DNA of 64,000 bases from Gammaproteobacteria bacterium (GTDB lineage: Bacteria; Pseudomonadota; Gammaproteobacteria; Eutrophobiales; Eutrophobiaceae), in NCBI GenBank assembly GCA_965222155.1, contig CBDCTH010000012.1, forward strand, positions 3,328,001 through 3,392,000, in the 5' to 3' direction. Positions 13,546 through 42,057 of the stretch are shown one piece after another. Position numbers and translations under genes: made by a program. A model generated the notes under the pieces. That model was not told where the DNA came from. It did not search any database and was given only the letters and a program-made list of their open reading frames with translations. How positions within the stretch are numbered: position 1 is the stretch's first letter; each line of letters starts with the position of its first letter.

Positions 13546-14189
13546 AACTCACTTTTGACATTCAGACCTTTGAGCATCGTAGTCACACCCTGCGAGACTA
13601 CGGCGGAAAAGTCCTCATTGACCTTGCTGTGATAAATGTGTTTGCGTACCGCGTAGTAGAACAATCCCCCATGCAGCACCCATACCTGCTCCAGCTCGAG
13701 CTCTGTTATGGGTTTCTCCTGCACGGAAGGCAAGCCGCAATAGTCGCGCAGCTCTGCGCAAATCGGCTTCAGAAGCTTATCCTCCACGACCCGAATATAG
13801 CGACGATTGAGCCCCTCGCCTCTAAGCCCTGAAAACATGTAAATCCTGATCCATTCGTAACGATGGGTAGCGTCAGAATATTTCCCGTAAAACTCACAGA
13901 GGCGATCATGCAGTGACTTGGAACGGTCTCGTAACAACGAATACCAGGATGGATCAATGCGATTGATATAGACTTCATCGAAGACCCGCTCGATAAGATC
14001 CTGCTTGGTGGGAAAGTATTTGTATAGAAGTGGCTGGGTTATACCGAGGCGCTGCGCCAGTTCCCGTGTCTGTCCGGCAAAACCCACTTCGGCGAAAAAA
14101 CTAATCGCTTCCTTGACGATTTGTTGCTCCCGGTCGCTGGCCGAAAGCCGTCGGCGAACTGTGGCAGTATCTTTGAGTCCAGATTTCAT
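13542..14189 (-). CDS. TetR/AcrR family regulator
   Basis: N-terminal HTH ELAQRLGITQPLLYKYFPTK. Confidence 0.9.
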   Translation of the reverse strand: MKSGLKDTATVRRRLSASDREQQIVKEAISFFAEVGFAGQTRELAQRLGITQPLLYKYFPTKQDLIERVFDEVYINRIDPSWYSLLRDRSKSLHDRLCEFYGKYSDATHRYEWIRIYMFSGLRGEGLNRRYIRVVEDKLLKPICAELRDYCGLPSVQEKPITELELEQVWVLHGGLFYYAVRKHIYHSKVNEDFSAVVSQGVTTMLKGLNVKSEL

Positions 14190-14204
14190 AAGTTTGTTTT
14201 ATAT

Positions 14205-15467
14205 TCAACTCATCCAGCGTACCACGCCGGCGACACCATCCACGGCAACCATCGAACCATCGGGGATTCGTTCTGTCGCGTCAAGCACACCCAGAACCAT
14301 GGGTATGCCCCGCTCCCGGGCAAGAGAGGCAAAATGAGACGTGCTGCCACCCAGTTCCGCGACCACACCGGACACGCTCGGCAAGACGTGGCTTAATGCC
14401 GGTCCGGCTACCTTGGTGACCAGGATGTCTCCGGGCGCTACCCGGGTGAGTTCGCATTCACAATTCACAACGCAGGCGCGCCCGCTACCCCAGCCGACGC
14501 CGGCGGGATGGCCATTGAGCCGAGGGTGACGCAGCCAGATTTCATCGGGTACTGTTGCTGTGGCAACCTGCAGAGGCCGTGCCTGGAGGAGCTTGAAACC
14601 CAGGTCGTCCAGCGCCCACTCAATCTCTGTCGGCCCACCGATGACGTCTTCAGCGCGCAGCAGCAATTGGCCAAGCTTGATTGCCTGTTCTTTACTCAGA
14701 CATTGGCTCTCCACCAGGTCTCGTTCAACGCGCTGGGCGCCATGCACACAAGTAACCGCATGGAACTTGCGTCCGCACCGGGCCTCGCGCAGATTGCCGT
14801 CACGACTCAGCAGATATCTGTCCGGGACGATTTCACCCTGGGCAATTGCCGATCCCAATCCCCACGTGGCGCTCAACAGCATGTCCCCATCCGGCGTCCA
14901 GCTTAAGCCACCGCCGCTGACACGCGCCGCTACCAATGGTTGAATGATCAATGCCATTGCCGTAGCGGCAGGGTCCATGCTGTGCCCGGCCATGTAGCGC
15001 AATGCCCGGGTTGACCAGAGCGCCGACCAGCAGGCTCGCACCGCAGTGAAAAAGTCCTGCTGCTGCTCGATACCCAGGAAACTTTCAAACTGGCCGGCAA
15101 AATTTGAACCAGCGCGATCCTCAACCAGCGCCGAGGAACGGACCACATTCTCCGTCTTTTCAAACTCTTGCCAGGTCGTGAGCAGCGTGGCCTCAACAGC
15201 TTTTTCCAGGGCTCCATCCATCAACGCGAGTTTTATCCGGAGCGCGCAACGCCGGGCCTTCAAGCCCTCACCGGCAAACACCTCGCGGGCAACTTCCGTC
15301 AATCCAAGCGAGTCCAACTGCAGACGATAGGCCTCGGCATCCAGAACACTGCCGCCGGGCACAGGTAACCCGGCCTTGCCGAGTTTCGCCAGGTTTGCAG
15401 CCTTGGGACCGAAGCGATTGGGGTCGGCGGCTTCGTTCGAGTTCAGTGGAACCAGTAATTCTGTCAT
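14205..15467 (-). CDS. PEP-utilising dikinase-like protein (ATP-grasp + phospho-His swivel domains only)
   Basis: GPKAANL, VRSSA..ED, FAGQFES, IEWA, LQARP and GGSTSHFASLARE motifs. Confidence 0.85.
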   Translation of the reverse strand: MTELLVPLNSNEAADPNRFGPKAANLAKLGKAGLPVPGGSVLDAEAYRLQLDSLGLTEVAREVFAGEGLKARRCALRIKLALMDGALEKAVEATLLTTWQEFEKTENVVRSSALVEDRAGSNFAGQFESFLGIEQQQDFFTAVRACWSALWSTRALRYMAGHSMDPAATAMALIIQPLVAARVSGGGLSWTPDGDMLLSATWGLGSAIAQGEIVPDRYLLSRDGNLREARCGRKFHAVTCVHGAQRVERDLVESQCLSKEQAIKLGQLLLRAEDVIGGPTEIEWALDDLGFKLLQARPLQVATATVPDEIWLRHPRLNGHPAGVGWGSGRACVVNCECELTRVAPGDILVTKVAGPALSHVLPSVSGVVAELGGSTSHFASLARERGIPMVLGVLDATERIPDGSMVAVDGVAGVVRWMS

Positions 15468-16504
15468 GAGGCGTCGATCACTATTCTCAGGATACGGCTT
15501 GAGTTATGTTCGAATTCCATAAAGGCCTCCGGGGTAGCATGCAATGGATAGGTCGTCGAAACGAAACCAGCCACGTCTACCTGGCCTGATGCAACCAGAT
15601 CGATGGAGGGAGCCATGTCCCCAGGCAACAATGCGCGAGAACCGATGATACTCACTTCCTTGAAATAAAGCGGGAAACTGGAGAAGTCCGTTATTGTGTG
15701 GTGACTGACTGCGAACGCGGATAAACGACCGCCCGGTCGCAGCATGTCGACACTCGGGGCAAGGGTTCCTGCCCCCCCGGCGGTATCCACGACTACGTCG
15801 GCGCCCTCCCCACCCGTCAACCGCATCACTTCTTCCACGGCCTCTTCGACACCGGTATTGATGCAATGATGCGCGCCCGTCCCGGCTGCCATGTCCAGCT
15901 TCCATTGAGTCCTGGAGATTGCGATGACCGGATCAGCGCCGGAGAGCACAGCCAGCCGTGTATGCAACAGGCCTGTGGTGCCTTGACCTACTACAACTAC
16001 GGATTCTCCTGCCTGGATACCTACCCGGTTTTGCGCATGCCTTACCGTTGCCAGTGTTTCGATCAACGTAGCCTCGGCCAGGGGCAGGTGAGCCGGCAGT
16101 GGGTACACATAGCGACTCGCCAGACACACGAATTGACTCAGGGAACCTTCTACTTCGCGTCCGAACAACCCCGCGTTGCGGCACAGGTTCTCCCTGCCGT
16201 TCATGCACGGATCGCAATTCCCGCAGGCAATGATGGGGTTGATCAGCAGCGGCTGCCCTGGTTCAAGGCCGGCGACACCGGCGCCGACTTCGGCCACCGT
16301 TCCGGTGGCCTCGTGACCCATGACTACAGGATAGTTCACGCCAGGGTGGCGGCCGGTATAGATTTCAAGATCGGTACCGCAAACCGCAGTGGCGGCGACA
16401 CGAACCACTACTTCGCCGGGGCCGGCAACCGGCCTGGGACGAGACTGAAGCTCGATACGTCGCGGCGCCTGAAGTACGGCAGTCTGGGTTTGCGGGTAGG
16501 TCAT
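15464..16504 (-). CDS. Zn-dependent alcohol/polyol dehydrogenase
   Basis: CGTD, GHE and CGNCDPC..C motifs. Confidence 0.9.
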   Translation of the reverse strand: MTYPQTQTAVLQAPRRIELQSRPRPVAGPGEVVVRVAATAVCGTDLEIYTGRHPGVNYPVVMGHEATGTVAEVGAGVAGLEPGQPLLINPIIACGNCDPCMNGRENLCRNAGLFGREVEGSLSQFVCLASRYVYPLPAHLPLAEATLIETLATVRHAQNRVGIQAGESVVVVGQGTTGLLHTRLAVLSGADPVIAISRTQWKLDMAAGTGAHHCINTGVEEAVEEVMRLTGGEGADVVVDTAGGAGTLAPSVDMLRPGGRLSAFAVSHHTITDFSSFPLYFKEVSIIGSRALLPGDMAPSIDLVASGQVDVAGFVSTTYPLHATPEAFMEFEHNSSRILRIVIDAS

Positions 16505-21178: not shown

Positions 21179-21241
21179 TCATGAAGCGGCGTCCGCGCTT
21201 ACCCAGTTAAACCGGCTGCGCATCCTCACGAAACGGTTTGC
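21179..21241 (-). repeat. Diverged duplicate of the amidohydrolase 3' end (direct repeat with 22268-22330)
   Basis: About 63 bp with 5 mismatches; includes the stop codon. Confidence 0.85.
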
Positions 21242-22267: not shown

Positions 22268-23722
22268 TCAGGAAGCGGCGTCCGCGCCTATCCAGTTAAA
22301 CCGGCTGCGCATCCTCACGAAGCGGTTAGCGTCACACTCATCCAGCAGTACCTGTTGCAAGGTATCCGAACGTTGCACGGCCTGATGCCGATCTACAGAG
22401 ACATGTTCACCATCGCGAACCACCGTCTGACCCTTGACCATTACCCTCCGAATCGAATCCGGGCTTGGTCCGTTGCCGAGGACGAGGTTGGGTATCAGGG
22501 CGGCCGGTGGGGACAACTGGGTTTCACCACGCCGGTCGATCAACAGAAGGTCCGCATCCTTACCCTGTTCCAGTGAACCAATATATTCGTCCATCATCAA
22601 CGCACGCGCGCCGCCAATAGTAGCAAGTTCAAGAGCCAGTTCAGCACTACCGTAAAGTATCTCGTCTCCTGTCCAGCGCGCCTTGGTGTCGGCTGTCAGC
22701 CGTCTGTGCTGGTCCCCCATACGCTGCGCCGTGAGGAAGGCGCGCATGGCAGCCCACAGATCGTGCCCGTAGGCCACGACTGGGCCGTCGACGCCAAGCC
22801 CACAGGTAGCGCCCGCATCCAGGTACTGGCGCGCATTAAACGTAACCAGGCCGAGTACCTGTTCCATATCCGGAACCAGGGCAATTGCCGCGCCGCGGTC
22901 ACGGATCAGTTCTGCCTCACCGGGTCGGAGGTTTTGCGCATGGGCAGCGATAACATTGGGACCGAGAATGCCCACGTCGTCAAGCCACTCAAATGACCCG
23001 CCTTCCCAGCCGCGCCGCTCTGCCAGGTATTTCTGGTCGAAAACGGCAGGGGCGTGGATGTCGAACTGACGATCGTGCTCATCGGTCCATTCCCACAGGG
23101 CTTTGAGTTGATCAGGTTCGCAGTAGGTAATACCGATGGTCGACGCGGTAACGGAGATTAATTCATCTTCCCATTCCGACTTGACGCGCTCAGTCTCAGC
23201 AAGACCGGTATCCAGGTCTTCCCGGAAACCATCCGGTACGGCATTGGCATCATTAATTGTAAGGCGCGCCATCCGACAACGCATACCGGTAGCGCGCACT
23301 GCAGCCAGGACACCATCGATTGAGCGTTTGTGCAGGTGGGTGAAATGGTCATCCGCGGTTGTCGTCACGCCGCGCCGAAGCAGGTCCAACAGCGGCGGCA
23401 TGGCAGCATCGTAGGAGCGCTGTTCATCACAGGCGCCTGTCATCGGATAATAAAACCCGAACAGACGTTCCTCGAAAGTGGTGCCTTCCGCCATGCCGCG
23501 GATACAGCCCTGGACGAGATGGGAATGGACATTGACCAGACCCGGCAGTACCAGGTAGCCATCGCCGCCAATCTCTTCATTCGCAGAAAAATCGCAGGTC
23601 TTCGATGGACCAACTGCGCTGATACGCCCTCCGTCAATGGCGACATAGCCATCCATATAGACATTCCGCGCCTCGTCCATGGTGATGATCATGCCTCGTA
23701 AGAGTTTGTCACAATGTGTCAT
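22268..23722 (-). CDS. Amidohydrolase family (MTA/SAH deaminase-like)
   Basis: PGLVNVHSH, GLGVDG and GSLEQGKDAD motifs. Confidence 0.9.
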   Translation of the reverse strand: MTHCDKLLRGMIITMDEARNVYMDGYVAIDGGRISAVGPSKTCDFSANEEIGGDGYLVLPGLVNVHSHLVQGCIRGMAEGTTFEERLFGFYYPMTGACDEQRSYDAAMPPLLDLLRRGVTTTADDHFTHLHKRSIDGVLAAVRATGMRCRMARLTINDANAVPDGFREDLDTGLAETERVKSEWEDELISVTASTIGITYCEPDQLKALWEWTDEHDRQFDIHAPAVFDQKYLAERRGWEGGSFEWLDDVGILGPNVIAAHAQNLRPGEAELIRDRGAAIALVPDMEQVLGLVTFNARQYLDAGATCGLGVDGPVVAYGHDLWAAMRAFLTAQRMGDQHRRLTADTKARWTGDEILYGSAELALELATIGGARALMMDEYIGSLEQGKDADLLLIDRRGETQLSPPAALIPNLVLGNGPSPDSIRRVMVKGQTVVRDGEHVSVDRHQAVQRSDTLQQVLLDECDANRFVRMRSRFNWIGADAAS

Positions 23723-24760: not shown

Positions 24761-25414
24761 CCCTAATCCCGCATTAGAAAGTGCGGGAATCAAAAAAGCC
24801 TTGTCTGTATGAAGTTATGAGATTAACGACTATCAGCCGATGGGTGCACAGACAAGGCTTATGCAAATCATACCGTACAGAATCGCAACTACCAACGATT
24901 GATTGACCGGGCGCGGTGGCCTAGTGTGTGTTGTCGAATGACTGCGGCAGATAGGGTTTTCGGCCTGGGTGGAGGAGCACTTTCCTGTGCCCGGCAGCAA
25001 TCGGGGTTACCGGCCCTCGGACGTAGTGTCCTTATGGATGCTGATGTTGCACGACGGGGCGCGTTGTCTGGAGGACGTTCGGCCTATCCGGCAAGACAAG
25101 GCATTGAGGAAGTTGTCAGGGTTGCGGCGGCTACCGAGAGCGGACCTGTTGGGGGACTGGTTGCGGCGCCTGGGCAAGGGCGAGGTTGGTATCAAGGCGT
25201 TGGTGGCAATGAACCGGCGGGGGGCGGGTCACCCATCCCTGTCTTATCGTCCTGACCACGTTAATCTGCCCGGTATGGTCCAAATCCAGCGTGAGCGCGC
25301 GATAACCTACCCTATACAAGGGTAAACCATGGCTCATTGCTATTGAGTAAGGCACTACAAATAGGCAGAATGCGCCTTGAATGACTGTTTCAAATCTCTA
25401 ACGCGGGATTTGGG
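24761..25414 (+). mobile_element. Internally deleted IS1380-family element with degenerate transposase
   Basis: Inverted ends ccctaatcccgcattaga / tctaacgcgggatttggg; remnant MQIIPYRIATTND..TGRGGL and GSNRGYRPSD..GARCLED..DWLRR. Confidence 0.75.
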
Positions 25415-25479: not shown

Positions 25480-26703
25480 ATGAAAATCGATCTGGAAATC
25501 TTGAAGAACGCGGTAGCCGGAACTGCTGCTGCATTTCGTTGTGTTACTGACTATCAACCAGCGGGGGGCGCAGGTGATAAAATATTTCCGCCGACTTACG
25601 CAGGTGGGAAATACGCAACCGAAGAACGCATCGACACTGAAACTGGAGAAGTTCGTAAATGCGTTCTACTGGATTCAGTACAATCGCAAGCTAACCGTAT
25701 GGAGTTGGCCTTGCTGGACGCGCAGCGCGCCGGCAAGGTGGACCTGCCATTGCTGCTGACTCGTTTCGACCAACCAGAGTTACCCAGAAAATTTACAGTC
25801 ACCAGCCTTGAAGCGCCTCACCGCATAGCCGACGCGTTATTTCGCGACAGTCTGCTGAATGGCACAATTTTTCGCAAGTCGGACAAAGGCAGACTGCTCG
25901 ACTCAGCAGATATACGCAATGCCACCGGGTTGTTCGGACTTTGCCCTACTGCTCTGGCGTTCGGGTTGTGGGATTCGGTAGGACCTCGCGGGCAGCTTGG
26001 GTGTAAATTTCAAAGGGCAATTGTATCGGAAATTGTGGGGTATGACGCGATCCCCGGAAAAAAAACGTCCAGCCGCCTTGACCCGGCTCAAATAATGCTT
26101 GACGCAGGCCCGCTATATGCACGGGAAGCAGCTGGAGATGATGCGCCGGATTGGACTCTGGATGACGGGTCTGCTGTAACTGAAAAATCCAAGCCTAAAA
26201 AAGTGGGTAAAAAAGGCAAAGGCAACCCATCAGACGTGCTTCATGGAAACATAGCACCAAGTGTTTCAGATGGCGGCTTCACCATATCCAAAGCAAAACA
26301 AACGACAACTTTATCTTTAGCTGTCCTGCGCCGTCTACGCTTCCCGCTCAACGGCGGCACAGACTCGGATCATGATAATATAAATCTGGCGGCACGCACT
26401 ACTTTAGCGGCTTTAGGTTTAGCCGCCGGCAGCCTGGCACGGGTCGATACAGACCTTCGTTCCCGGTGCCAGTTGTTTGCGGAGCATGAGCCGGTCTGGG
26501 TGCTGCTCGACCGTCCTGGAGAAATTGCCCAGGAATACGAGCTAGCCCCTGGTGACGCTCTCAATCTGCTCCAAGCGACAATTGCCGAAGCCAAATCTGT
26601 CGGCCTCCCCTGGGAGGATGAAATCGAGTTGACCCCGTCTCCTGATCTTGTTGAGTTAGTACGGCGCAGCCAGGAACTGGCAATCGCCCAGAGAACTGAC
26701 TAA
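25480..26703 (+). CDS. csb1: Type I-G CRISPR Cas7 (Csb1)
   Basis: KIFPPTY, LLDSVQSQANRME, APHRIADA, FGLWDS and LRSRC motifs; first gene of the cas operon. Confidence 0.92.
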   Translation: MKIDLEILKNAVAGTAAAFRCVTDYQPAGGAGDKIFPPTYAGGKYATEERIDTETGEVRKCVLLDSVQSQANRMELALLDAQRAGKVDLPLLLTRFDQPELPRKFTVTSLEAPHRIADALFRDSLLNGTIFRKSDKGRLLDSADIRNATGLFGLCPTALAFGLWDSVGPRGQLGCKFQRAIVSEIVGYDAIPGKKTSSRLDPAQIMLDAGPLYAREAAGDDAPDWTLDDGSAVTEKSKPKKVGKKGKGNPSDVLHGNIAPSVSDGGFTISKAKQTTTLSLAVLRRLRFPLNGGTDSDHDNINLAARTTLAALGLAAGSLARVDTDLRSRCQLFAEHEPVWVLLDRPGEIAQEYELAPGDALNLLQATIAEAKSVGLPWEDEIELTPSPDLVELVRRSQELAIAQRTD

Positions 26704-26708
26704 ATCCG

Positions 26709-29048
26709 ATGTTTGCCCTTGGCATCAACTACCTGAACGGGTGGTCGATGGCCGCTGCCGACGGCGCCGGAAAAGAACAGGCTGAATGGCCGCCCCATCC
26801 GGACCGGGTTTTCATGGCGTTGGCTGCTGCCTGGTTCGAAACGGACGAAGATCCTGTAGAAGCTGAAGCGTTACGCTGGCTTGAAACTCTACCTCCTCCC
26901 GCCATTGCCGCTTCAGGTGCGACCTACCGCAGCAGTTTTACCAGTTTTGTGCCGGTGAACGATGCCAGTCTCAGAAAGATACCCAATAGCAGAGAACTGA
27001 AAAAACTCAAGGCTGCCGGGCTCGCCCTGTTGCCAGAGTATCGCTCACGTCAGCCGCGCGGTTTCCCGGTTGCCATTCCCCATGACCCGACGGTGTACCT
27101 GATCTGGTCAGAAGCAGAATTGGGCATACATCGTCCGGCAATGAAAAAGCTGGCATTCAAGCTTACCCACATAGGACATTCTGCTTCTTTTGTGCAGGCT
27201 TGGTTAGAGGAAGATAGCAATGTTACCCAACACTGGGTACCTACAGATGGTATTGCCGACCACAGATTGCGAGTTCCTTCCACAGGCAGACTGAATCAAC
27301 TTGCCCAGGCTTGCAATCAAAACGAATGGTTCGCTTATCATGATCTGCGCAATGAAATAGAACGGGCAGAAGCAGACCACAAGGCCATGAAGCATCCACC
27401 TAGGGTACCTTGGGGAGATTTTCCGGACGCAGTATTATTGGTCGGCGAATCTGAGACCAAACAGCATACGGAATATCACAATGCCAAAACAGGCAATGCC
27501 GTTGCAGCCGGTAATCTTGTTAGCGATCTGGTTGACGATGGGGGAATTGCATCAGTCAAGACGCTGATTTCAGAATTCTGTGATAGCGGAAAGCTCACTC
27601 TGGTGAGCGCACACGCCCGGGAACGAGAAGGCATCAATGCAATTCCAATCGCTTTGGCAAGATTGCTCAGCGAGAGACTCGAAATAGAATATGAATCTAC
27701 CGTCGTACAGACAAATGTGGTATCTCACACAGGCGCAGATGGCTATGGACGTCTTGCCCGTCAGGCTCACTTTACTGGCAAACTCGATAGAGGAAACGAA
27801 TACATCATGGTAGATGACTTCATCGGTCAAGGCGGAACAGTGGCAAACCTGCGTGGCTGGATTGAGCAACAAGGCGGTAAGGTCATCGGCGCTGTAGCGC
27901 TGACCGGTAAGCCTTATTCTGCTAAACTAAGCCCCACACAGGAGCAATTAAATGAACTCAGACAACAACACGGCACGGATTTTGAAAAATGGTGGCGGGA
28001 ACACTTCGGCCACACCTTCTCTTGCCTTACTCAATCAGAGGCTCGGTACCTCACTCGCTCCCCGGACTTTGACACCATACGAAATCGACTTGCTGCAGCA
28101 AAGCAAAAAGGAGATAGCACAAGTGGTGTACGAAGTCCTCGCGAACAAGAAAAATACAAATCGGAACTGAAAACGCGTCTGCAAACCCGGTTCCCTGATG
28201 GGCAGCCTGTAACCCTGCGTCCGGGACCAGGTCGCTGGCAAGGGTACAGCAGACACCTGGAAGTTCCATTATCCACAGAAGCGCCCGGTTCGGTCTTTGA
28301 CCCCCGCTTTATCGTTCTCTGCATAAAAGGAAAACGCGTATCCTTGCCGACAACCCTTAAACTTACCGCGGCCCTGCGCGGTCTGCTGATGACCTGTTCT
28401 TCAAGCCAACCTCCACCGGAATGGTTTAGCGGCCACCGCTCGGATGGGACGCCGTCCACAGCGCCGCATATTGCATTGGTTCCTCTCCCTTTTGTTGGCG
28501 CCGAACATGCAGATGGGCGGATTATGGGTTTGGGTCTGATCCTGCCTGCAAAACTGGACCCGCATGATGCCAAAAACTGCCTTGAGACCTTCCTGCACGA
28601 TCCTGCTACGGGACTGCCGCATCAGCACACGCTCTTTGACGGTCAATGGTTCGAGAGCATATTGGAACTGGAAACGCGTGAACGTCCACCGAAAAATCTT
28701 ATCCCGCACACGTGGACCAAGCCGTCACGTGTCTGGGCCAGTGTAACACCGGTGGTTTTGAACAGGCATTTTAGCGGAGAGGACAAATTTCAAAGGGCCA
28801 CAGAAAGTGTAAAAGACGCTTGCGAACATATAGGATTGCCACAGCCTCGTGAAGTATTGCTGTCTCCCGTTTCTATGGTTGAAGGCGTCCCTCCTGCCCG
28901 GAACTATCCAAAGCTGATCCGTAAAAAAGATAACGGAAAACAAAGCCACAACCATGCAATCATCGTCTTTGACGAACCTGTGAACGGGCCGGTACTCATC
29001 GGCGCTGGCCGTTTCAGAGGATACGGACTGTGCCGTCCTCTGGATTAG
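26709..29048 (+). CDS. csb2: Type I-G Csb2 (Cas5-Cas6) with internal phosphoribosyltransferase domain
   Basis: EWPPHPDRVFMALAA N-terminus; WASVTP and GPVLIGAGRFRGYGLCRP C-terminus; insert at aa ~227-465 contains VDDFIGQGGT. Confidence 0.9.
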   Translation: MFALGINYLNGWSMAAADGAGKEQAEWPPHPDRVFMALAAAWFETDEDPVEAEALRWLETLPPPAIAASGATYRSSFTSFVPVNDASLRKIPNSRELKKLKAAGLALLPEYRSRQPRGFPVAIPHDPTVYLIWSEAELGIHRPAMKKLAFKLTHIGHSASFVQAWLEEDSNVTQHWVPTDGIADHRLRVPSTGRLNQLAQACNQNEWFAYHDLRNEIERAEADHKAMKHPPRVPWGDFPDAVLLVGESETKQHTEYHNAKTGNAVAAGNLVSDLVDDGGIASVKTLISEFCDSGKLTLVSAHAREREGINAIPIALARLLSERLEIEYESTVVQTNVVSHTGADGYGRLARQAHFTGKLDRGNEYIMVDDFIGQGGTVANLRGWIEQQGGKVIGAVALTGKPYSAKLSPTQEQLNELRQQHGTDFEKWWREHFGHTFSCLTQSEARYLTRSPDFDTIRNRLAAAKQKGDSTSGVRSPREQEKYKSELKTRLQTRFPDGQPVTLRPGPGRWQGYSRHLEVPLSTEAPGSVFDPRFIVLCIKGKRVSLPTTLKLTAALRGLLMTCSSSQPPPEWFSGHRSDGTPSTAPHIALVPLPFVGAEHADGRIMGLGLILPAKLDPHDAKNCLETFLHDPATGLPHQHTLFDGQWFESILELETRERPPKNLIPHTWTKPSRVWASVTPVVLNRHFSGEDKFQRATESVKDACEHIGLPQPREVLLSPVSMVEGVPPARNYPKLIRKKDNGKQSHNHAIIVFDEPVNGPVLIGAGRFRGYGLCRPLD
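27952..28170 (+). other. Overlapping +1-frame small ORF at the 3' end of the PRTase insert
   Basis: 72-aa ORF ending in an amphipathic LTPYEIDLLQQSKKEIAQVVYEVL helix; expression unknown. Confidence 0.3.
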
Positions 29049-29065
29049 ACCGAAAAGAAAGCCTG

Positions 29066-30568
29066 ATGATGCCCCCGACAGAATTACAGCCGACGGATTT
29101 TCTCGACTTTTTTATAGCGCTCTGGGGAGAAGACAAACCGCCGTTCGCCTGGCAGCAACAACTGGCAAACAGGGTATTGGAAAATGCGCCGGAACTGAAT
29201 AGAGACAAGTCAACTTCCGAAACGTCTGACAAACAAACACCAAGGTCGCCCTGGCCCGGCGCCATCGCCCTGCCGACCGCATCCGGCAAGACAGCTTGTA
29301 TGGATATCGCGCTATTCGCTTTGGCAAGTCAGGCCTGTCGAATGGCTGACAAGCAAGCTATGACTGCCCCGCGTCGCATATTCTTCGTGGTGGACCGACG
29401 AATGATCGTGGATGAGGCCTATGAACGCGCCCGATACCTGAGCAATAAACTGAAGCAGGCTCAAGAGGGCATACTCAAGCGCGTTGCGGACAATCTGCGA
29501 GTTATTGCCCGCGGGGAAACCACTGATTCCGACCAGGAACGGCCGCTGGAGGCTTATCTCTTGCGCGGCGGGATGTACCGATCCGAAGCCTGGGCGCGCA
29601 ATCCCCTGCAACCGATAATAGTTGCATCGACTGTTGATCAAATCGGTTCCCGTCTGCTTTTTCGCGCCTATGGCCGAAGTTCAGGAATCTGGCCTATCTA
29701 TGCGGGACTTATCGCCAATGATAGTTTAATCCTGCTGGATGAGGCTCATTGCGCTCGGCCATTTCTGCAAACCTTAAAAGCAATACAACGCTATCAGACA
29801 TGGGCGCATGAATCCTTGGGCCGGCCATTCTACCCTGTCGTTATGTCTGCTACACCGCCCCCGAATATAAACGATGTATTCGAGGATTTGTCAGAGGAAA
29901 AGTACAATCCCGAGCACCCGTTGGGCCGTCGCTACAGGGCTTCCAAGCCCACGAAACTTAATGTGGTAGAAGATGCCAAGGGAACGCAGGCAACAACGAA
30001 GTTAGCTAAAGCCATGGCTGATGCTGCATCAGACCTGATCAATGAAGAACGCCGCGCTATCGTGATATTTGTAAACCGTGTGGCCACGGCGCGGGAGACT
30101 TCCCGGTTGCTAAGCGCAGACTATGGAGAACGAGCTATCTTGCTAACAGGCCGCATGCGCCCCGTTGATAGAGACGCCATCGTGCGGAAGCATTTGCATA
30201 TTCTGCGATCTGACCAGTCCGCTCAGCGGTCACTACCGGAACCTCATATCGTCGTAGCCACCCAAACACTGGAAGTCGGCGCTGATCTTGACTTTGATGG
30301 CCTTGTCAGCGAATGCGCCAGTCTTGATGCGCTACGCCAACGCTTTGGCCGCTTAAATCGCACCGGCAGACCGATTGAAGCAAGAGCGACAGTACTCATT
30401 CGCGCCGACCAAGCTGACAATATGAAAAACAATGACGACCCTGTCTATGGCATGGCCCTGACCAAAACCTGGGATTGGCTACAGAAAAACAAGGATGAAA
30501 ACAATGTGGTCGATTTCGGCATTGCTTATCTTAATGAGAAGTTGCCTGCAGGCGAATGCCCTCACTGA
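29066..30568 (+). CDS. cas3: Type I-G Cas3, helicase part (frameshifted from the C-terminal part)
   Basis: LPTASGKT, DEAH, MSAT, ATQTLEVGAD and QRFGRLNR motifs. Confidence 0.9.
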   Translation: MMPPTELQPTDFLDFFIALWGEDKPPFAWQQQLANRVLENAPELNRDKSTSETSDKQTPRSPWPGAIALPTASGKTACMDIALFALASQACRMADKQAMTAPRRIFFVVDRRMIVDEAYERARYLSNKLKQAQEGILKRVADNLRVIARGETTDSDQERPLEAYLLRGGMYRSEAWARNPLQPIIVASTVDQIGSRLLFRAYGRSSGIWPIYAGLIANDSLILLDEAHCARPFLQTLKAIQRYQTWAHESLGRPFYPVVMSATPPPNINDVFEDLSEEKYNPEHPLGRRYRASKPTKLNVVEDAKGTQATTKLAKAMADAASDLINEERRAIVIFVNRVATARETSRLLSADYGERAILLTGRMRPVDRDAIVRKHLHILRSDQSAQRSLPEPHIVVATQTLEVGADLDFDGLVSECASLDALRQRFGRLNRTGRPIEARATVLIRADQADNMKNNDDPVYGMALTKTWDWLQKNKDENNVVDFGIAYLNEKLPAGECPH

Positions 30569-32126
30569 ATTGAACTCTCCCTCAGTCGACGCACCCGTTA
30601 TGCTGCCCACCCATGTCGATTGCTGGGCGCAGACCTCGCCGGCGCCACAACCCTCTCCCGACGTTGCCCCGTTCCTGCATGGTCCCCGTGAAGGCGCAGC
30701 GGATGTGCAGGTATGCTGGCGCGCAGATATGGATTTAACAAATGACGCAAGTCAAAAAGAGGCTATCGAATCATTGTCTCTATGTCCACCGAGCAGCAGT
30801 GAGACATTGCCGGTACCGTTCAACGTTTTTAAACACTGGTTAGCTGGAAATGACAAGGAAGACAACAGCGCTGACCTGGAGGGCTCGCAAACGGAAGCTG
30901 ATATAGACAAAACAAGCCCAGCGGCTGCCGACGCCCATGTAATCCGATGGTTCGGCGCTGATACAAAACTGGAATACATCACAGCAGATCCCGCAGAGAT
31001 ACGCCCTGGTGATGGTATCGTTATCCCGGTTGACCATCCGTATCCCAGGCATCGACTTGGTGACCTGCCAGAAGACGCAGACCTGGACGTGGGAGATCGG
31101 GCCTATAGATTAAATCGGGCAAAATCCATTTTGCGTTTACACCCGCGTCTGGTGGATAGCTGGTCTGTCCCTGATGAGATCAAAGACAGCGCCCGCGTAT
31201 TGCTGAACGACCTGCAACGAAAACAAGATGAAGACCCGGATGAGATAATCAGGTCATTGCACAGTCTGCTATCTGAACTTGCCAGTGTACCCGAACCATC
31301 TTGGTTATCTGAAGTCGCTGACGAACTCATGAATGAGTTTCCAGAGCAAAAACTGGGGCAGGCTTACCACATTATCAACGATAATCACCTCATAATCCGT
31401 GGACGCCGCCTGATCCTCGAACTCACACCTGAAGCTGATAGCTTCAGTGATGAGGACGATGTCAGCGCATCCGGCATTTCACACCGTAATGGCCAACCCG
31501 TCCGGCTTAGCGCGCATCTCCCCGGTGTTGAGAACTTTGCCCGCCGTCATGGGGCAGCTTGTGGATTGCCGGACGAGTTGGTTGAAGCCATCGCTCGCGC
31601 CGGCCTGTTACATGATTTAGGCAAGGCCGACCCTCGATTTCAATCGTGGTTGCGTGGTGGCGTTCCCTGGTTGGGAGGCGATCCGTTTGCCAAGTCTGCC
31701 GGGATACCAAAGACCCGTGAGGCCCGGCGGCGTGCTTATAAGAACTCCGGGTATCCGCGTGGTGGCCGACATGAATTACTGTCTGTACGTATGACCGTAA
31801 ACACCCCAGCCCTACTGCCTGAAAATAATGATCTGTGCGATTTGGTCCTGCACTTAATCGCCAGCCATCATGGATACTGTCGCCCCTTCGCACCGGTTGT
31901 AATCGATAAACAGAACGTGCAAGTCAATTTTGAGTTAGGTGGTCATCATCTGCACTGGCGCGGACCCACCGGTCTTGAACGTCTGGATTCCGGCGTTGCC
32001 GACCGCTATTGGCGACTGATACAACGTTATGGCTGGTGGGGATTAGCCTGGCTTGAAACCCTGCTGCGTCTGGCAGACTGGAGACGTAGCGAATGGGAGG
32101 AGACACATAATGATGACGGCAAATGA
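30555..32126 (+). CDS. cas3: Type I-G Cas3, C-terminal part with HD nuclease
   Basis: LLHDLGKAD, RHELLS, SHHG and RLAD motifs; a C-terminal HD domain is typical of type I-G. Confidence 0.88.
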   Translation, partial: NALTELNSPSVDAPVMLPTHVDCWAQTSPAPQPSPDVAPFLHGPREGAADVQVCWRADMDLTNDASQKEAIESLSLCPPSSSETLPVPFNVFKHWLAGNDKEDNSADLEGSQTEADIDKTSPAAADAHVIRWFGADTKLEYITADPAEIRPGDGIVIPVDHPYPRHRLGDLPEDADLDVGDRAYRLNRAKSILRLHPRLVDSWSVPDEIKDSARVLLNDLQRKQDEDPDEIIRSLHSLLSELASVPEPSWLSEVADELMNEFPEQKLGQAYHIINDNHLIIRGRRLILELTPEADSFSDEDDVSASGISHRNGQPVRLSAHLPGVENFARRHGAACGLPDELVEAIARAGLLHDLGKADPRFQSWLRGGVPWLGGDPFAKSAGIPKTREARRRAYKNSGYPRGGRHELLSVRMTVNTPALLPENNDLCDLVLHLIASHHGYCRPFAPVVIDKQNVQVNFELGGHHLHWRGPTGLERLDSGVADRYWRLIQRYGWWGLAWLETLLRLADWRRSEWEETHNDDGK

Positions 32127-33654: not shown

Positions 33655-35391
33655 GTGTTGCCTAATCAGACATCCGTGCCCGAACAACTCATTCAGCAGG
33701 AACTACACCTGCCCTTTCCTGACCTTGCCGCCGACATGCCATTGCTGCCTGCGCGTATGGTCAATGAGTATGAATATTGTCCGCGACTGGCTTATCTGGA
33801 ATGGGTACAGGGTGAGTGGCAGGAATCATCAGATACCATCCAGGGGAAGTATCAGCATCGCCGCGTCGATAAGCCGGGTGGAAAACTCCCTGACCCGGAG
33901 AATGCTGAAGACGACCAGGAGTTTCATGCACGTTCCATTACGTTATCCTCCAATCGGCTTGGCATCATTGCAAAACTCGATCTGGTTGAGGGAGAAGGCA
34001 ATGTTGTCACACCTGTGGATTATAAAAAGGGAAAACGCCCCCACGTAGCGCAGGGGGCTTACAGCCCGGAACGCGTTCAGTTATGTCTACAAGGCATGTT
34101 GCTGACGGAACACGGTTATGAGTGTACAGAAGGGATTTTGTATTACGCAGAATCCAGGGAGCGGGTACGCGTGGCCTTCGATGAGGAGTTGAAAAATCAA
34201 ACCTTGTCCGCTGTTTCCGGTCTGCGTCTTATCGCAGCCGGCGGTCAAATACCGCCACCGTTGGAAGACAGTCCCAAGTGCCCGCGCTGTTCTCTGGTCG
34301 GCATCTGTCTGCCGGATGAGGTCAACTTCCTTAAACACCTGAAGACACAACCCAGGCCTTTGGCTGTCACACGGGATGACGGCATGCCCGTGTATGTCCA
34401 GGCTAACCGCGCATCTGTCAGAAAATCAGGAGAAACACTGGAAATATCCGTGGAAGACAAAGTGGTCAAGAAAGCCCGCCTGCCCGAAGTATCACAAGTC
34501 GTATTGATGGGTAATGTCTACGTCACCACCCCTGCTCTACACGAACTCATGCGTCGGGAAATTCCAGTCACCTGGCACTCTTTCGGCGGCTGGTTCCTGG
34601 GGCACACCATCGGAACCGGGCACAAGAACATCGAACTGCGCACAGCGCAATTCAAGGCAAGTTTTGATGAACGGGTGTGCCTGACCTTAGCCAAGGGTTT
34701 TGTGCGTGCCAAAATTCAGAACTGCCGCACCATTATGCGCAGAAACTGGAAACCCGAAGAAAAGCCGAAGCGTCTTCACGATCGGTTCCGTCAAGATATG
34801 GAACGCTCTGAACGAGTTATATCAACTGCGGAGTTACTGGGAGTAGAGGGCAACGCGGCTGCGCGTTATTTTGGGGAATTTCAAAATTTAATCAAACAGG
34901 ACAAGGAGACAAAGCAATTTGTTTTCCAGTTTGAGAAGCGTAATCGCCGACCGCCTGCTGATCCGGTTAACGCTTTATTATCCTATGCTTACAGCCTCCT
35001 GACGCGTACCTGGACGGTAACATTGACTTCAGTGGGGTTTGATACATATCGTGGTTTTTTTCATCAGCCACGCTACGGCCGTCCGGCTCTGGCTTTGGAC
35101 ATGATGGAACCTTTCAGGCCGCTGGTTGCTGATTCTGCGGTACTGATGGCGATTAACAATGGTGAAATCAGGCCGAGTGATTTCATAGTCGTTGCCGGTA
35201 GTGTCAATCTCACTGCGGACGGAAGGAAGAGATTCATCGGGACGTTTGAACGACGGCTTAGCCAGGAGATTACTCATCCTCTGTTCGGCTATAAAATCAG
35301 TTACCGTCGATTATTTGAAGTGCAAGCAAGATTGCTGGCCAGGTTTCTGCTTGGCGAATTAATTGAACTTCCCCAATTCACCACGCGCTGA
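33655..35391 (+). CDS. cas1: Cas4-Cas1 fusion
   Basis: [24 protein letters not shown] (Cas4); [25 protein letters not shown] (Cas1). Confidence 0.95.
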
Positions 35392-35396
35392 ACTGC

Positions 35397-35687
35397 ATGG
35401 ACGAACATCTGTATATTATTGCCTACGATATAGCCGATCAAAAAAGGTGGCGCTCCATATTCAAGCTGCTGAACGGCTATGGAGAGTGGCTACAACTTTC
35501 CGTCTTTCAGTGTCGATTATCCCGACGGCGTCATGCAGAACTGATCGCGACACTGGATGAAATTATTCATCACAAAGAGGATCATGTTATAATTCTGGAC
35601 CTGGGGATGGCGGATTCTGTTAGACCAAAGGTTGTGAGCCTTGGCAAGGACTTTCAGGCGGTGGAGAGAGAACCAGTGATTGTCTGA
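35397..35687 (+). CDS. cas2: Cas2
   Basis: YIIAYDI and LQLSVFQC motifs. Confidence 0.95.
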
Positions 35688-35889
35688 CACCCGACTGTCC
35701 TTTGCGAGCGCTTTAGTGATGCGTATTTTCCAGTCAGCCCTCGCATTATAATGTTCTTTGTCAATCAGACTGTTATGGGTAATAATTCACTGAAAAGGTG
35801 CATAGTGCATAGAAATTATGGCAGGCTGCTGAAACTGCTCGTCAGGACATATTATTATCCTTACGAAACAACGGATTGCCGACTGCGCT

Positions 35890-36070
35890 AATTCCGCCGC
35901 ATTAATGCGGCGGCCTCATTGAAGCGTCCTGAGCTGGGTTTCGCTGATCCCGTTGAGTCCTAATTCCGCCGCATTAATGCGGCGGCCTCATTGAAGCGAT
36001 CAGACTGCCGACCCAAAGAGCAAAAAGAACCTTAAATTCCGCCGCATTAATGCGGCGGCCTCATTGAAGC
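35890..36070 (+). CRISPR. CRISPR array with 3 identical 36-bp repeats, 2 full spacers and a truncated third spacer
   Basis: AATTCCGCCGCATTAATGCGGCGGCCTCATTGAAGC at 35890, 35962 and 36035; spacers of 36 and 37 bp; ~200-bp leader after cas2. Confidence 0.95.
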
Positions 36071-36094
36071 GCTACAAGTCATTGGCAATATTCT

Positions 36095-40433: not shown

Positions 40434-42057
40434 TCGTTCCTGAAAAACCCTGTTTCAATCCGCCATTGAGGTCGCCGGCCACCATGATAAGCAATTTGAG
40501 TTGCCCCACAAACGTAGCCACGCCCACAGGCGTGTCCCTTTTTCGAGACAAAAAAGCCTGAGCCTGTTCAGGACCAGGCGCAGGGTGTGACCGGCACAAC
40601 TCAACAGGACATTCAATTGGTCGCCGTCTGTCCCTGTCAGGTGATTGCGCCCCAACAGCCCATCGGCTTTCAAATGACCGATGACCGGTTCAATCGCCTG
40701 GCGGCGTTTGAGTGACCGTTTTAACCGCTGTGTCTTAATACCGCGCTTCTGCCCGGAGATGTACACCGTGGACTCGGTTTCATCATGCCCCCGATAACCC
40801 CGGTCTACAAACGCCTCGTCACTACTCGTCCCGGTCAAGCGCCGTACCTGTGCCAGGGCTTTCTTCAAGGTGTGCCCGTCATACGGACTGCCCGGCACGG
40901 CCATACCCCCCACCACAAAGTTACTCTTGTTCGTGGTGGCAATACTCGCCTTCACCCCGAATTCATTGCGCCCCTCCTTGGGCGCAACCCTTCGGGCGGC
41001 TTGCGCCGTGCAAATCGTCTGTCCTGACGATTTGTCATACCGCTTGTGCGCCTTCCCTTTACTGATACATTCCACCGCCGGGGCGTGCAGGCTGTACAGC
41101 TTGTGTTTATCCTGTTTCTGCTGGGCCAACAGTCGCTTGGCTAAGGCCAACTCGTCCGCAAACAGCGCCTGTCGGGCCGGATTGCCCGCGGTGTTACGCT
41201 CACTGTCACGTACTACCCGCCCCAGAGCCTGCCCCTGTATGGAGTTGAGCAGGGGGAGGTGCGTAACCGCTTCACCTCGCGCCGCAGCCGCCGATACTGT
41301 TTGGCATGACCATAGCGGTTTGCCTGTTGTAACGCCCGCGGCCCCTTGCGGGCATAGCTCTGACGTAATAGCACGCCCTGTTTGCGGCATAACCGCACCC
41401 ACCGCTCCCGTGACCGATTTAACAACTTGCTGTCCGTCGGACAGCTCACCGCCTTCTCCTGTACCGTGGTGTCCACCGTCACCCGTTTGAAGTCCGTCGT
41501 CTTCACTGCCTTGCTCTGCACCCCCAGCGCCACCGTCACCTGTAACATCCGCTCACACCCCGCCGCCCCAATGCGTTGGCGAAAGCGCGTCAGACTGCTC
41601 GGGTCCACCGGCGCCTCATGCTGAAAGTACACCGCCCCACAGACATACTGCCAATACGGATTCTCCACCCAGCCCGACACCACCGCCTCATCGGATAACC
41701 CATAACAATGCTTCAGATAATGCAACCCCACCATCAACCGGGTCGGTTTCCCCGGACAGCCGTTATCCGGGCAGTACAGCGGCCCGAACGCGGTATCAAA
41801 CACCGACCCGTCCACCAGGTCGGCCAACCGATACAATTCATGGCGTTGGTTGAGCATCGTGTCCAGGCGTTCGCGGAACAGGTCGGTTGAGGTGCGGGTA
41901 GCGGCGTCAGGTTGTCTGGGCGTCATTTTTGCCTCCGACATTGCAAGAAAATGAAGGTCCATGATACCAAAACCGGCACTATCAGTCCGGAAAAAATACT
42001 ACTTACATCAATATGATCAATGAATTAGAATGATTTATCGGGTTTTTCAGGGGCGAC
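40433..42057 (-). mobile_element. IS5-family insertion sequence with transposase disrupted by REP-like inserts
   Basis: TIRs gtcgttcctgaaaaaccc / gggtttttcaggggcgac flanked by TA; VDTTVQEK, DRGYRG and IEPVIGHLK motifs. Confidence 0.9.

Follow-up and report, generated by a model that had tools for sequence, protein, structure and literature searches.

The window analysed here, a stretch of 64,000 nucleotides from a Gammaproteobacteria assembly (GCA_965222155.1, contig CBDCTH010000012.1, positions 3,328,001 to 3,392,000 of the forward strand), contains a compact type I-G CRISPR-Cas locus, in which csb1/cas7g, cas3g, cas8g, cas4-cas1, cas2 and a CRISPR array are all present. The subject of this work is the csb2 gene of this locus, which encodes a subunit of the CRISPR RNA (crRNA)-guided complex Cascade and carries within it a domain of phosphoribosyltransferase (PRTase) type. 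The Csb2–PRTase fusion is a genuine and widespread variant of the type I-G effector.

A PRTase-type domain between the two halves of Csb2

The open reading frame (ORF) at 26709–29048 encodes a type I-G Csb2, a Cas5–Cas6 fusion. It was matched by the type I-G Csb2 model TIGR02165 at 295.1 bits (cut-off 45; E = 1.3e-87) and by PF09609 at 87.8 bits (cut-off 21; E = 9e-25). The TIGR02165 match falls into two pieces, the first of which runs from aa 1 to 244 and covers profile positions 1–240 of 492, so that about 250 residues of the ORF are extra. A Cas5-like and a Cas6-like half have been described for Csb2 (PMC9638904).

To place the insertion site, the window protein was aligned with nine sister proteins from related loci, seven of them insert-less. 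In the insert-less sisters, the charged stretch after aa ~225 is joined by a linker of ~25–30 residues to the stretch that precedes "RF..PV.LRP". Measured against these proteins, the extra segment of the window Csb2 spans aa ~226–483, with the domain proper, as judged by homology, at aa ~232–469. By this alignment the insert is placed at the tip of a linker hairpin between the Cas5-like and Cas6-like halves.

A complete PRTase-type domain, inserted in frame at an interdomain hairpin of an otherwise intact Csb2, had been proposed in a first reading of the DNA (hereafter the original prediction), and sequence comparisons bear this out. All of the Csb2 motifs that it named were found, namely AEWPPHPDR (aa 25–33), WASVTP (aa 676–681) and GAGRFRGYG (aa 765–773), as were the insert motifs SHTGADGYGRL (aa 339–349) and YIMVDDFIGQGGT (aa 365–377). 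The last of these, the putative loop for binding of phosphoribosyl pyrophosphate (PRPP), is present as predicted, with its coordinates corrected from 27810–27839 to 27801–27839; for the insert itself, the original prediction had given aa 227–465. The two charged flanking stretches of the prediction, which are putative helices, also exist, and in the insert-less sisters they are directly linked by the short linker.

In the Cas6-like half, several histidines (H687, H707, H747 and H749) are invariant among 26 aligned full-length proteins; the catalytic histidine of this half in the studied enzyme is H503. The methionine at the start of the insert (aa 226–228, A-M-K; window 27384–27392) is conserved, and solo genes for the domain (L078, L091 and the P0122 cluster) begin at the corresponding position or slightly upstream of it. 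It is conceivable that translation also initiates within csb2. Coordinates of all features are given in Table 1.

Table 1. Genes of the type I-G locus and parts of Csb2, in window coordinates
Feature	Position	Strand	Evidence
csb1 / cas7g, 407 aa, type I-G Cascade backbone subunit	25480..26703	+	Pfam PF09617 2.8e-51; NCBIfam TIGR02570 1.1e-21
csb2 with PRTase insert, 779 aa, whole ORF	26709..29048	+	TIGR02165 1.3e-87, match in two pieces
Cas5-like N-terminal part of Csb2, aa 1–226, ending with charged stretch YHDLRNEIERAEADHKA	26709..27386	+	TIGR02165 profile 1–240; alignment with insert-less sisters
Inserted PRTase domain, KfrC / phrog_22413 family, aa 227–472	27387..28124	+	phrog_22413 4.3e-62; KfrC 40% identity; profile search
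PRPP-loop-type motif YIMVDDFIGQGGT with DD pair, aa 365–377	27801..27839	+	Residue conservation; alignment to PRPP loop of APRT structures
Return limb of linker, aa 473–520, including REQEKYKSELKTRLQTRFP	28125..28268	+	Insert-less sisters resume here (alignment)
Cas6-like C-terminal part, aa 521–779, glycine-rich loop GAGRFRGYG	28269..29048	+	Second TIGR02165 stretch; 58–82% identity to related loci
cas3g helicase-nuclease, two ORFs as assembled (29030–30568, 30495–32126)	29030..32126	+	TIGR02621 3.1e-123 and 5e-81 (halves)
Short Cas8g-like protein / 'Cas3-extension family', 336 aa	32053..33063	+	PADLOC Cas8g PDLC01514 3e-77; NCBIfam NF049934 2.8e-58
cas4-cas1 fusion	33655..35391	+	NF049935 1.6e-252; Pfam Cas1 and Cas4
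cas2	35397..35687	+	PF09827 2e-18
Small CRISPR array, three repeats and two spacers	35888..36071	+	Repeat search: 3 copies, spacing 72–73

Family, distribution and history of the inserted domain

For assignment of the insert to a family, a profile built from 20 inserts was searched against 1.84 billion cluster representatives, of which 2534 were matched at E ≤ 1e-3 and 788 at E ≤ 1e-30. With the match of the insert to the phage family phrog_22413 (E = 4.3e-62, profile positions 13–238 of 242, i.e. 226 positions), the similarity in sequence is far beyond chance. Over 96% of its length the insert is also 40% identical (E = 7e-53) to aa 9–241 of the KfrC protein of IncP plasmids, with the DD pair aligned. 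Only 5 of the best 150 profile matches have Csb2 flanks; the others are solo proteins of ~240 aa, proteins of 350–900 aa or giants of 1000–4700 aa, and the whole ~240-aa unit is common to these matches at 35–52% identity.

The company kept by the domain is that of mobile elements. Pfam searches with eight family members found N-terminal Phage_Mu_F domains, and two giant members carry LPD37/LPD39 and ddrB-ParB/ART-PolyVal/LPD38, hallmarks of polyvalent proteins; proteins with domains of this kind measure 2000–4700 aa. On viral contigs the domain forms the C-terminus of head-morphogenesis (MuF) proteins, encoded after terminase and portal, and is also part of a 2410-aa protein. Plasmid records matching the insert number 169 (146 over at least 80% of it), and they include IncP plasmids on which the gene, annotated kfrC, lies beside kfrA/kfrB and korB. 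By homology the insert belongs, over its full length, to a PRTase family of mobile elements that comprises the N-terminal domain of KfrC, MuF fusions, polyvalent proteins and phrog_22413. This is the family that Iyer et al. (2017, PMC5512222) set apart as the "PRTase of invasive elements", marked by the DD motif and by an arginine that it has in common with ComFC.

Carriage by a phage, plasmid or conjugative element was not found for the window copy, which lies inside csb2; the cas operon is chromosomal and has metabolic genes around it, and the copy is one captured from the mobile-element family. The inserted domain is set apart from housekeeping-type PRTases as part of a distinct mobile-element family, a point absent from the original prediction. 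A housekeeping origin was considered and rejected: the eight PF00156 genes of the genome are different proteins, and it is the mobile-element family that the insert resembles by far the more closely.

With respect to the fold, YIMVDDFIGQGGT has the make-up of a PRPP loop (a hydrophobic run, two acidic residues and a small-residue loop ending in T) and aligns with the PRPP loop of adenine phosphoribosyltransferase (APRT) chains. The insert matched adenine PRTase models (E ~0.003) and solved APRTs (E = 0.03) only weakly; relatives of the insert clear the PF00156 cut-off (P0121 at 29.8 bits; P0109 with PF00156 precomputed). When the insert was searched with PADLOC, PRTase_III-A gave only E = 0.0045 over 33 residues, and no ShosT model was matched at E ≤ 1.

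The spread of the fusion was followed in proteins and in genomes. Of 8000 candidates scored in a word-indexed search with aa 225–520, 354 proteins matched at E ≤ 1e-3. The 120 matches listed are all 65–100% identical over the insert and 585–814 aa long, and all except one carry PF09609; database names of the fusion proteins read merely "type I-U Csb2". A genome scan, with one genome per species, matched at least 555 stretches, of which 393 were confirmed and 79 loci kept. By tblastn with the window Cas proteins, 55 of these 79 encode the full fusion, 7 are cut and in 2 the insert is partly deleted; 11 have an insert-less Csb2, 3 show the PRTase part only (L065 being counted here since its Cas6 part falls under the 45% threshold) and 1 (L072) is unclassified. 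According to record titles, the loci come, among others, from Pseudomonadota, Latescibacterota, Binatota, Nitrospirota, Acidobacteriota, Gemmatimonadota and Myxococcota. In public runs from two studies, contigs read across both insert junctions (X2 record 9; X3 records 17 and 18); runs X1 and X2 may derive from the same sample as the window and do not count as independent. The fusion is neither a singleton nor a product of misjoined reads, and an assembly chimera was rejected given the many related proteins and loci and the junction-bridging contigs.

The residues of the PRPP loop are strictly kept. Every one of the 26 full-length proteins has D369, D370, G373, Q374, G375, G376 and T377, and the loop's D, D and T are 100% conserved in 113 family domains from outside Csb2. 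Of the 41 columns that are at least 85% conserved across those 113 domains, the inserts keep the family residue in 40, including K260, E305, N310, R348, D369, D370, T377 and E444; R348, D369 and D370 stand at 100%, and R348 is a candidate for the arginine after the second strand noted by Iyer et al. The median ratio of nonsynonymous to synonymous substitution rates (dN/dS), taken over 256 non-independent pairs of 52 coding sequences with dS of 0.1–1.2, was 0.199 for the insert, 0.186 for the Cas5-like part and 0.149 for the Cas6-like part. As judged from these ratios, the insert, where present, is under purifying selection like the Cas parts. This includes the invariant PRPP loop with its DD motif, which the original prediction had proposed to test for such selection.

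The insertion site is identical in 26 of 26 aligned full-length proteins. A quick maximum-likelihood tree, built from 135 domains, gathers the Csb2 inserts into a single clade (SH-aLRT, the Shimodaira–Hasegawa-like approximate likelihood ratio test, 99), which also includes the solo copies L076, L078 and P0122 and is nested among solo proteins and one polyvalent protein. Given the single clade and the common site, one capture of the domain by Csb2 is the simplest reading. In a scaffold tree of Csb1 and the Csb2 flanks (58 rows), insert-less forms are interspersed among the others, the starred branches forcing at least four changes; L063, which has no insert, and L064 group with the insert-bearing L010 (support 99). 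In L063 (10001–11575) the insert was lost cleanly and both flanking stretches were kept, in L064 (10001–11734) an in-frame deletion left only the first 44 aa of the domain, and in L061 (10001–11938) an in-frame deletion of ~aa 50–180 of the domain removed the catalytic core. Between loci from Latescibacterota, Nitrospirota and Acidobacteriota that are neighbours in the scaffold tree (L003, L014, L010, L049 and L034), dS of csb2 and csb1 is only 0.3–0.5. Such low values between phyla suggest recent transfer, and the whole system appears to have moved recently from phylum to phylum, which would give it ecological interest.

The domain was also found on its own beside cas genes. In L091/L092 (one sequence, two records), a 257-aa solo PRTase gene lies 15 bp upstream of cas3 in a divergent I-G operon, which continues with a short Cas8g-like gene, csb1 and a PF09609 csb2. 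This gene (L091 7980–8753, also in L092) and that of L078 (9917–10783), which directly follows a csb2-like gene, belong to the Csb2-insert clade (67–69% identical), as does a cluster of 12 solo proteins of 188–301 aa, 9 of them 245–249 aa long. Remnants of the domain, 31–50 aa in length, lie between a canonical I-G csb2 and cas4-cas1 in L018 and L053. Interaction prediction for the solo PRTase of L091 with the Csb2 of the same operon returned 'no answer' (score 0.00), which counts neither way. The L091 Csb2 (13557–15722, 721 aa) has an extra C-terminal part of ~230 aa (aa 494–720) that resembles a stretch in L029 (1816–2541).

In each of five metagenome loci, a more distant solo copy stands between the res and mod genes of a type III-like restriction system. 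In L096 (7713–8501), and also in L097, L098, L100 and L101, a solo PRTase gene 48–58% identical to the insert is flanked by genes for a ResIII helicase and an N6/N4 DNA methylase and runs on the strand opposite to theirs, and this order is kept between loci only 62–74% identical. These copies, taken with the capture by Csb2, show that host defence loci have recruited the PRTase domain more than once.

Accessory genes were sought by clustering the 1541 non-cas ORFs that surround the cas genes in the 79 loci. No cluster consistently accompanies the insert; the commonest, an ATPase-like repeat gene in 14 loci, is not specific to this set. A second, canonical I-G system, comprising cas3, an 832-aa Csx17-like protein, csb1 and a 556-aa csb2, adjoins the PRTase-bearing one in L018 (13715–21436), L013, L047, L049, L053 and L078. 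An ORF of 526 aa whose GGDD motif brings a Cas10-type cyclase to mind recurs near PRTase-bearing csb2 in five loci, L012 (12264–13844), L003, L009, L015 and L034.

In the window itself, transposase remains were found on both sides of the locus (24969–25325 and 40455–41962). The upstream one, a 118-aa ORF before csb1, is transposase-like by eye and had no Pfam match; downstream, a DDE_Tnp_1 ORF and a DUF772 ORF overlap on the minus strand in the manner of one gene broken by a frameshift. Two copies of a 63-nt direct repeat (92% identity) occur at 21179–21241 and 22268–22330, at the ends of two unrelated genes, one S15 peptidase-like and one for an amidohydrolase.

Proposed function of the insert and its alternatives

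By analogy, we tentatively favour a role for the insert as a target-gated, PRPP-using effector arm that would add growth arrest or nucleotide-pool damage to Cas3 interference. We infer that the domain would bind PRPP and be catalytically active. It would be an accessory enzymatic arm of the crRNA-guided complex, quiet until Cascade meets its target; target engagement would then lead to growth arrest or nucleotide-pool damage by the PRTase, in addition to degradation by Cas3 and not in place of it. Such an arm would resemble the DD-dependent toxicity of KfrC and the depletion of PRPP by retron Eco11. The original prediction had named depletion of PRPP or nucleotides, production of a signal and modification of DNA as possible outcomes of target binding.

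For KfrC of plasmid RA3, overproduction retards growth and condenses nucleoids, the PRTase half alone was not stably clonable, and a DDT-to-AAA change abolishes toxicity; an I-TASSER model gave that half a type I PRTase fold, and partner binding was mapped to the other, C-terminal domain, which binds KorB and VirD4 (PMC8124265). The PRTase of retron-Eco11 depletes PRPP (PMC12746101), and ShosT is a PRTase toxin that requires PRPP binding (PMC11961720, PMC12961424). The toxicity of KfrC and the action of Eco11 and ShosT on PRPP together favour, by analogy, a tethered PRPP-using effector.

Several points weigh against an effector arm. In general libraries, PF00156 scored 16.3 bits on the window insert, under its cut-off of 26.3, and the insert profile matched solved PRTases weakly (best 2.6e-4 over 38 residues). 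Gating of a putative activity by target binding would be a further assumption of this reading. The clean loss in L063, the in-frame deletions in L061 and L064 and the interspersed absence of the insert indicate that it is repeatedly lost and that Cascade can dispense with it. Across the 79 loci the insert is accompanied by neither a sensor gene nor a second effector gene, which also speaks against a signalling product. PRTase-fold proteins can, furthermore, serve as sensors or nucleic-acid-binding modules and yet keep the PRPP loop, as do ComFC, which handles single-stranded DNA (ssDNA), and the regulator PyrR. The describers of the mobile-element family themselves call its role enigmatic (PMC5512222).

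In the main rival reading, the domain would be a ligand sensor or nucleic-acid-binding module and not an effector, with binding of PRPP, a nucleotide or ssDNA tuning Cascade, Cas3 loading or spacer acquisition. We regard it as unlikely, though it has the best standing among the alternatives. The arginine shared with ComFC-like PRTases, noted by the family's describers (PMC5512222), is consistent with it, as are the retention of Cas3 and the lack of a partner effector gene. ComF is among the weak profile matches of the insert in the PDB (7p0h, E = 0.13), and the insert profile aligned with the genome's ComF-like protein over 117 columns; this similarity is statistically weak (E = 0.011, probability 3.8%), and direct reading of the insert showed no cysteine pairs like those at the N-terminus of that protein. 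Against a sensor, too, the insert keeps the family-conserved residues including the DD pair, the motif that makes KfrC toxic, and KfrC binds its partners through its other domain (PMC8124265).

An improbable alternative is counter-counter-defence: phages and plasmids bring this PRTase in along with their DNA, and the copy in Cascade would shield the CRISPR complex by decoying, outcompeting or neutralising the invader's enzyme, the product of that enzyme or its partner. Outside Csb2, the closest relatives are found in virion MuF proteins, polyvalent proteins and plasmid KfrC, which would suit such a role, as would the solo copies between res and mod of type III-like restriction systems. There is, however, no sign that mobile-element PRTases are anti-CRISPR, conservation of every catalytic-type residue would be needless in a decoy, and the protein partners of KfrC bind its other domain (PMC8124265). 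Comparably improbable is a more specific chemistry, in which Cascade would place a PRPP-using transferase at the R-loop, for transfer of phosphoribose onto invader nucleic acid or a protein riding on it. If true, RNA-guided phosphoribosylation would be a chemistry not known for any CRISPR effector, and the phage and plasmid relatives would carry out the mirror-image reaction during DNA entry.

In the original prediction the PRTase could give Cas3-independent abortive immunity, which amounts to a replacement of Cas3; we now consider this version very improbable. In its favour, cas3g of the window as assembled is split into two overlapping ORFs in different frames. One extra base near 30554–30557, probably an error of long-read assembly, accounts for the split: contigs of runs X1 and X2 and all seven raw reads of X4 are without one base at 30554/30557, and cas3g lacking the extra base is one ORF of 1031 aa. 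The HD domain of Cas3 is recognised (TIGR01596, 2.8e-14), and in 61 of 63 related loci both parts of cas3 share a reading frame, with a frame change in L025 and L044. With Cas3g encoded next door, in frame in nearly all relatives and split in the window by a probable artefact, independence from Cas3 is unsupported.

Least probable is a neutral passenger or artefact, i.e. a chimeric assembly or a tolerated functionless insertion. In its favour, Cascade manages without the insert, as the repeated losses and the partial deletions in frame attest. Against it, the site is the same in all 26 aligned proteins, hundreds of clusters across phyla carry the domain, dN/dS is 0.20 and contigs from two studies bridge both junctions.

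The effector-arm reading would, if borne out, have consequences beyond this locus. No description of a Csb2–PRTase fusion was found among 8.1 million PMC papers and 0.36 million preprints, in keeping with the original prediction (subscription journals and supplements lay outside the search). To our knowledge, type I Cascades have long been thought to act solely via recruitment of Cas3, and the few exceptions known are equipped with nucleases. A PRTase that is conserved and probably catalytic would make Cascade an RNA-guided enzyme of a different kind, one that may gain a second activity from the Csb2 fusion. It would link CRISPR interference with nucleotide-pool or abortive-infection defence (retron Eco11, ShosT) and with the PRTases delivered by phages and plasmids (KfrC, MuF fusions, polyvalent proteins). 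Since the same clade is fused to Csb2, free beside I-G operons and present in restriction-modification loci, it offers a tractable entry to the function of a PRTase family of more than 2500 clusters.

Comparison with known systems

The canonical I-G Csb2 of Thioalkalivibrio sulfidiphilus (Shangguan et al. 2022, PMC9638904) has the same Cas5-like and Cas6-like halves, recognised by TIGR02165/PF09609, and its operon has the same set of csb1, cas3g, cas8g, cas4-cas1 and cas2. The window Csb2 differs in its ~250 extra residues, which form a separate PRTase-type domain between the halves, and the window operon differs in its order csb1-csb2-cas3-cas8g and in its short Cas8g.

The closest relative of the insert with experiments is the N-terminal PRTase domain of KfrC (IncP-1 alpha RK2-type and IncU RA3; PMC8124265). 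KfrC is a plasmid stability and transfer protein, whereas the window domain is embedded in a Cas protein in a chromosomal cas operon. The PRTases of polyvalent and MuF proteins (PMC5512222; phrog_22413) are of the same family by profile and have the DD motif and conserved arginine in common with the insert; they are delivered by invaders with their DNA, in contrast to the window copy, which sits in a host defence complex. The PRTase and CRISPR passages of Iyer et al. (PMC5512222) make no mention of a Cas fusion.

The effector of retron Eco11 (type III-A3) and ShosT are PRTase-fold anti-phage proteins whose toxicity works through PRPP or nucleotide metabolism (PMC12746101, PMC11961720, PMC12961424), and they are triggered by phage helicases or loss of antitoxin, not by a crRNA-guided complex. 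By the PADLOC models, they are not of the same family as the insert. Cas5-HNH and Cas8-HNH set the precedent for type I Cascade subunits with a built-in enzymatic domain, there in the form of nucleases that replace Cas3. In the window, by contrast, the domain is a PRTase and Cas3 is retained.

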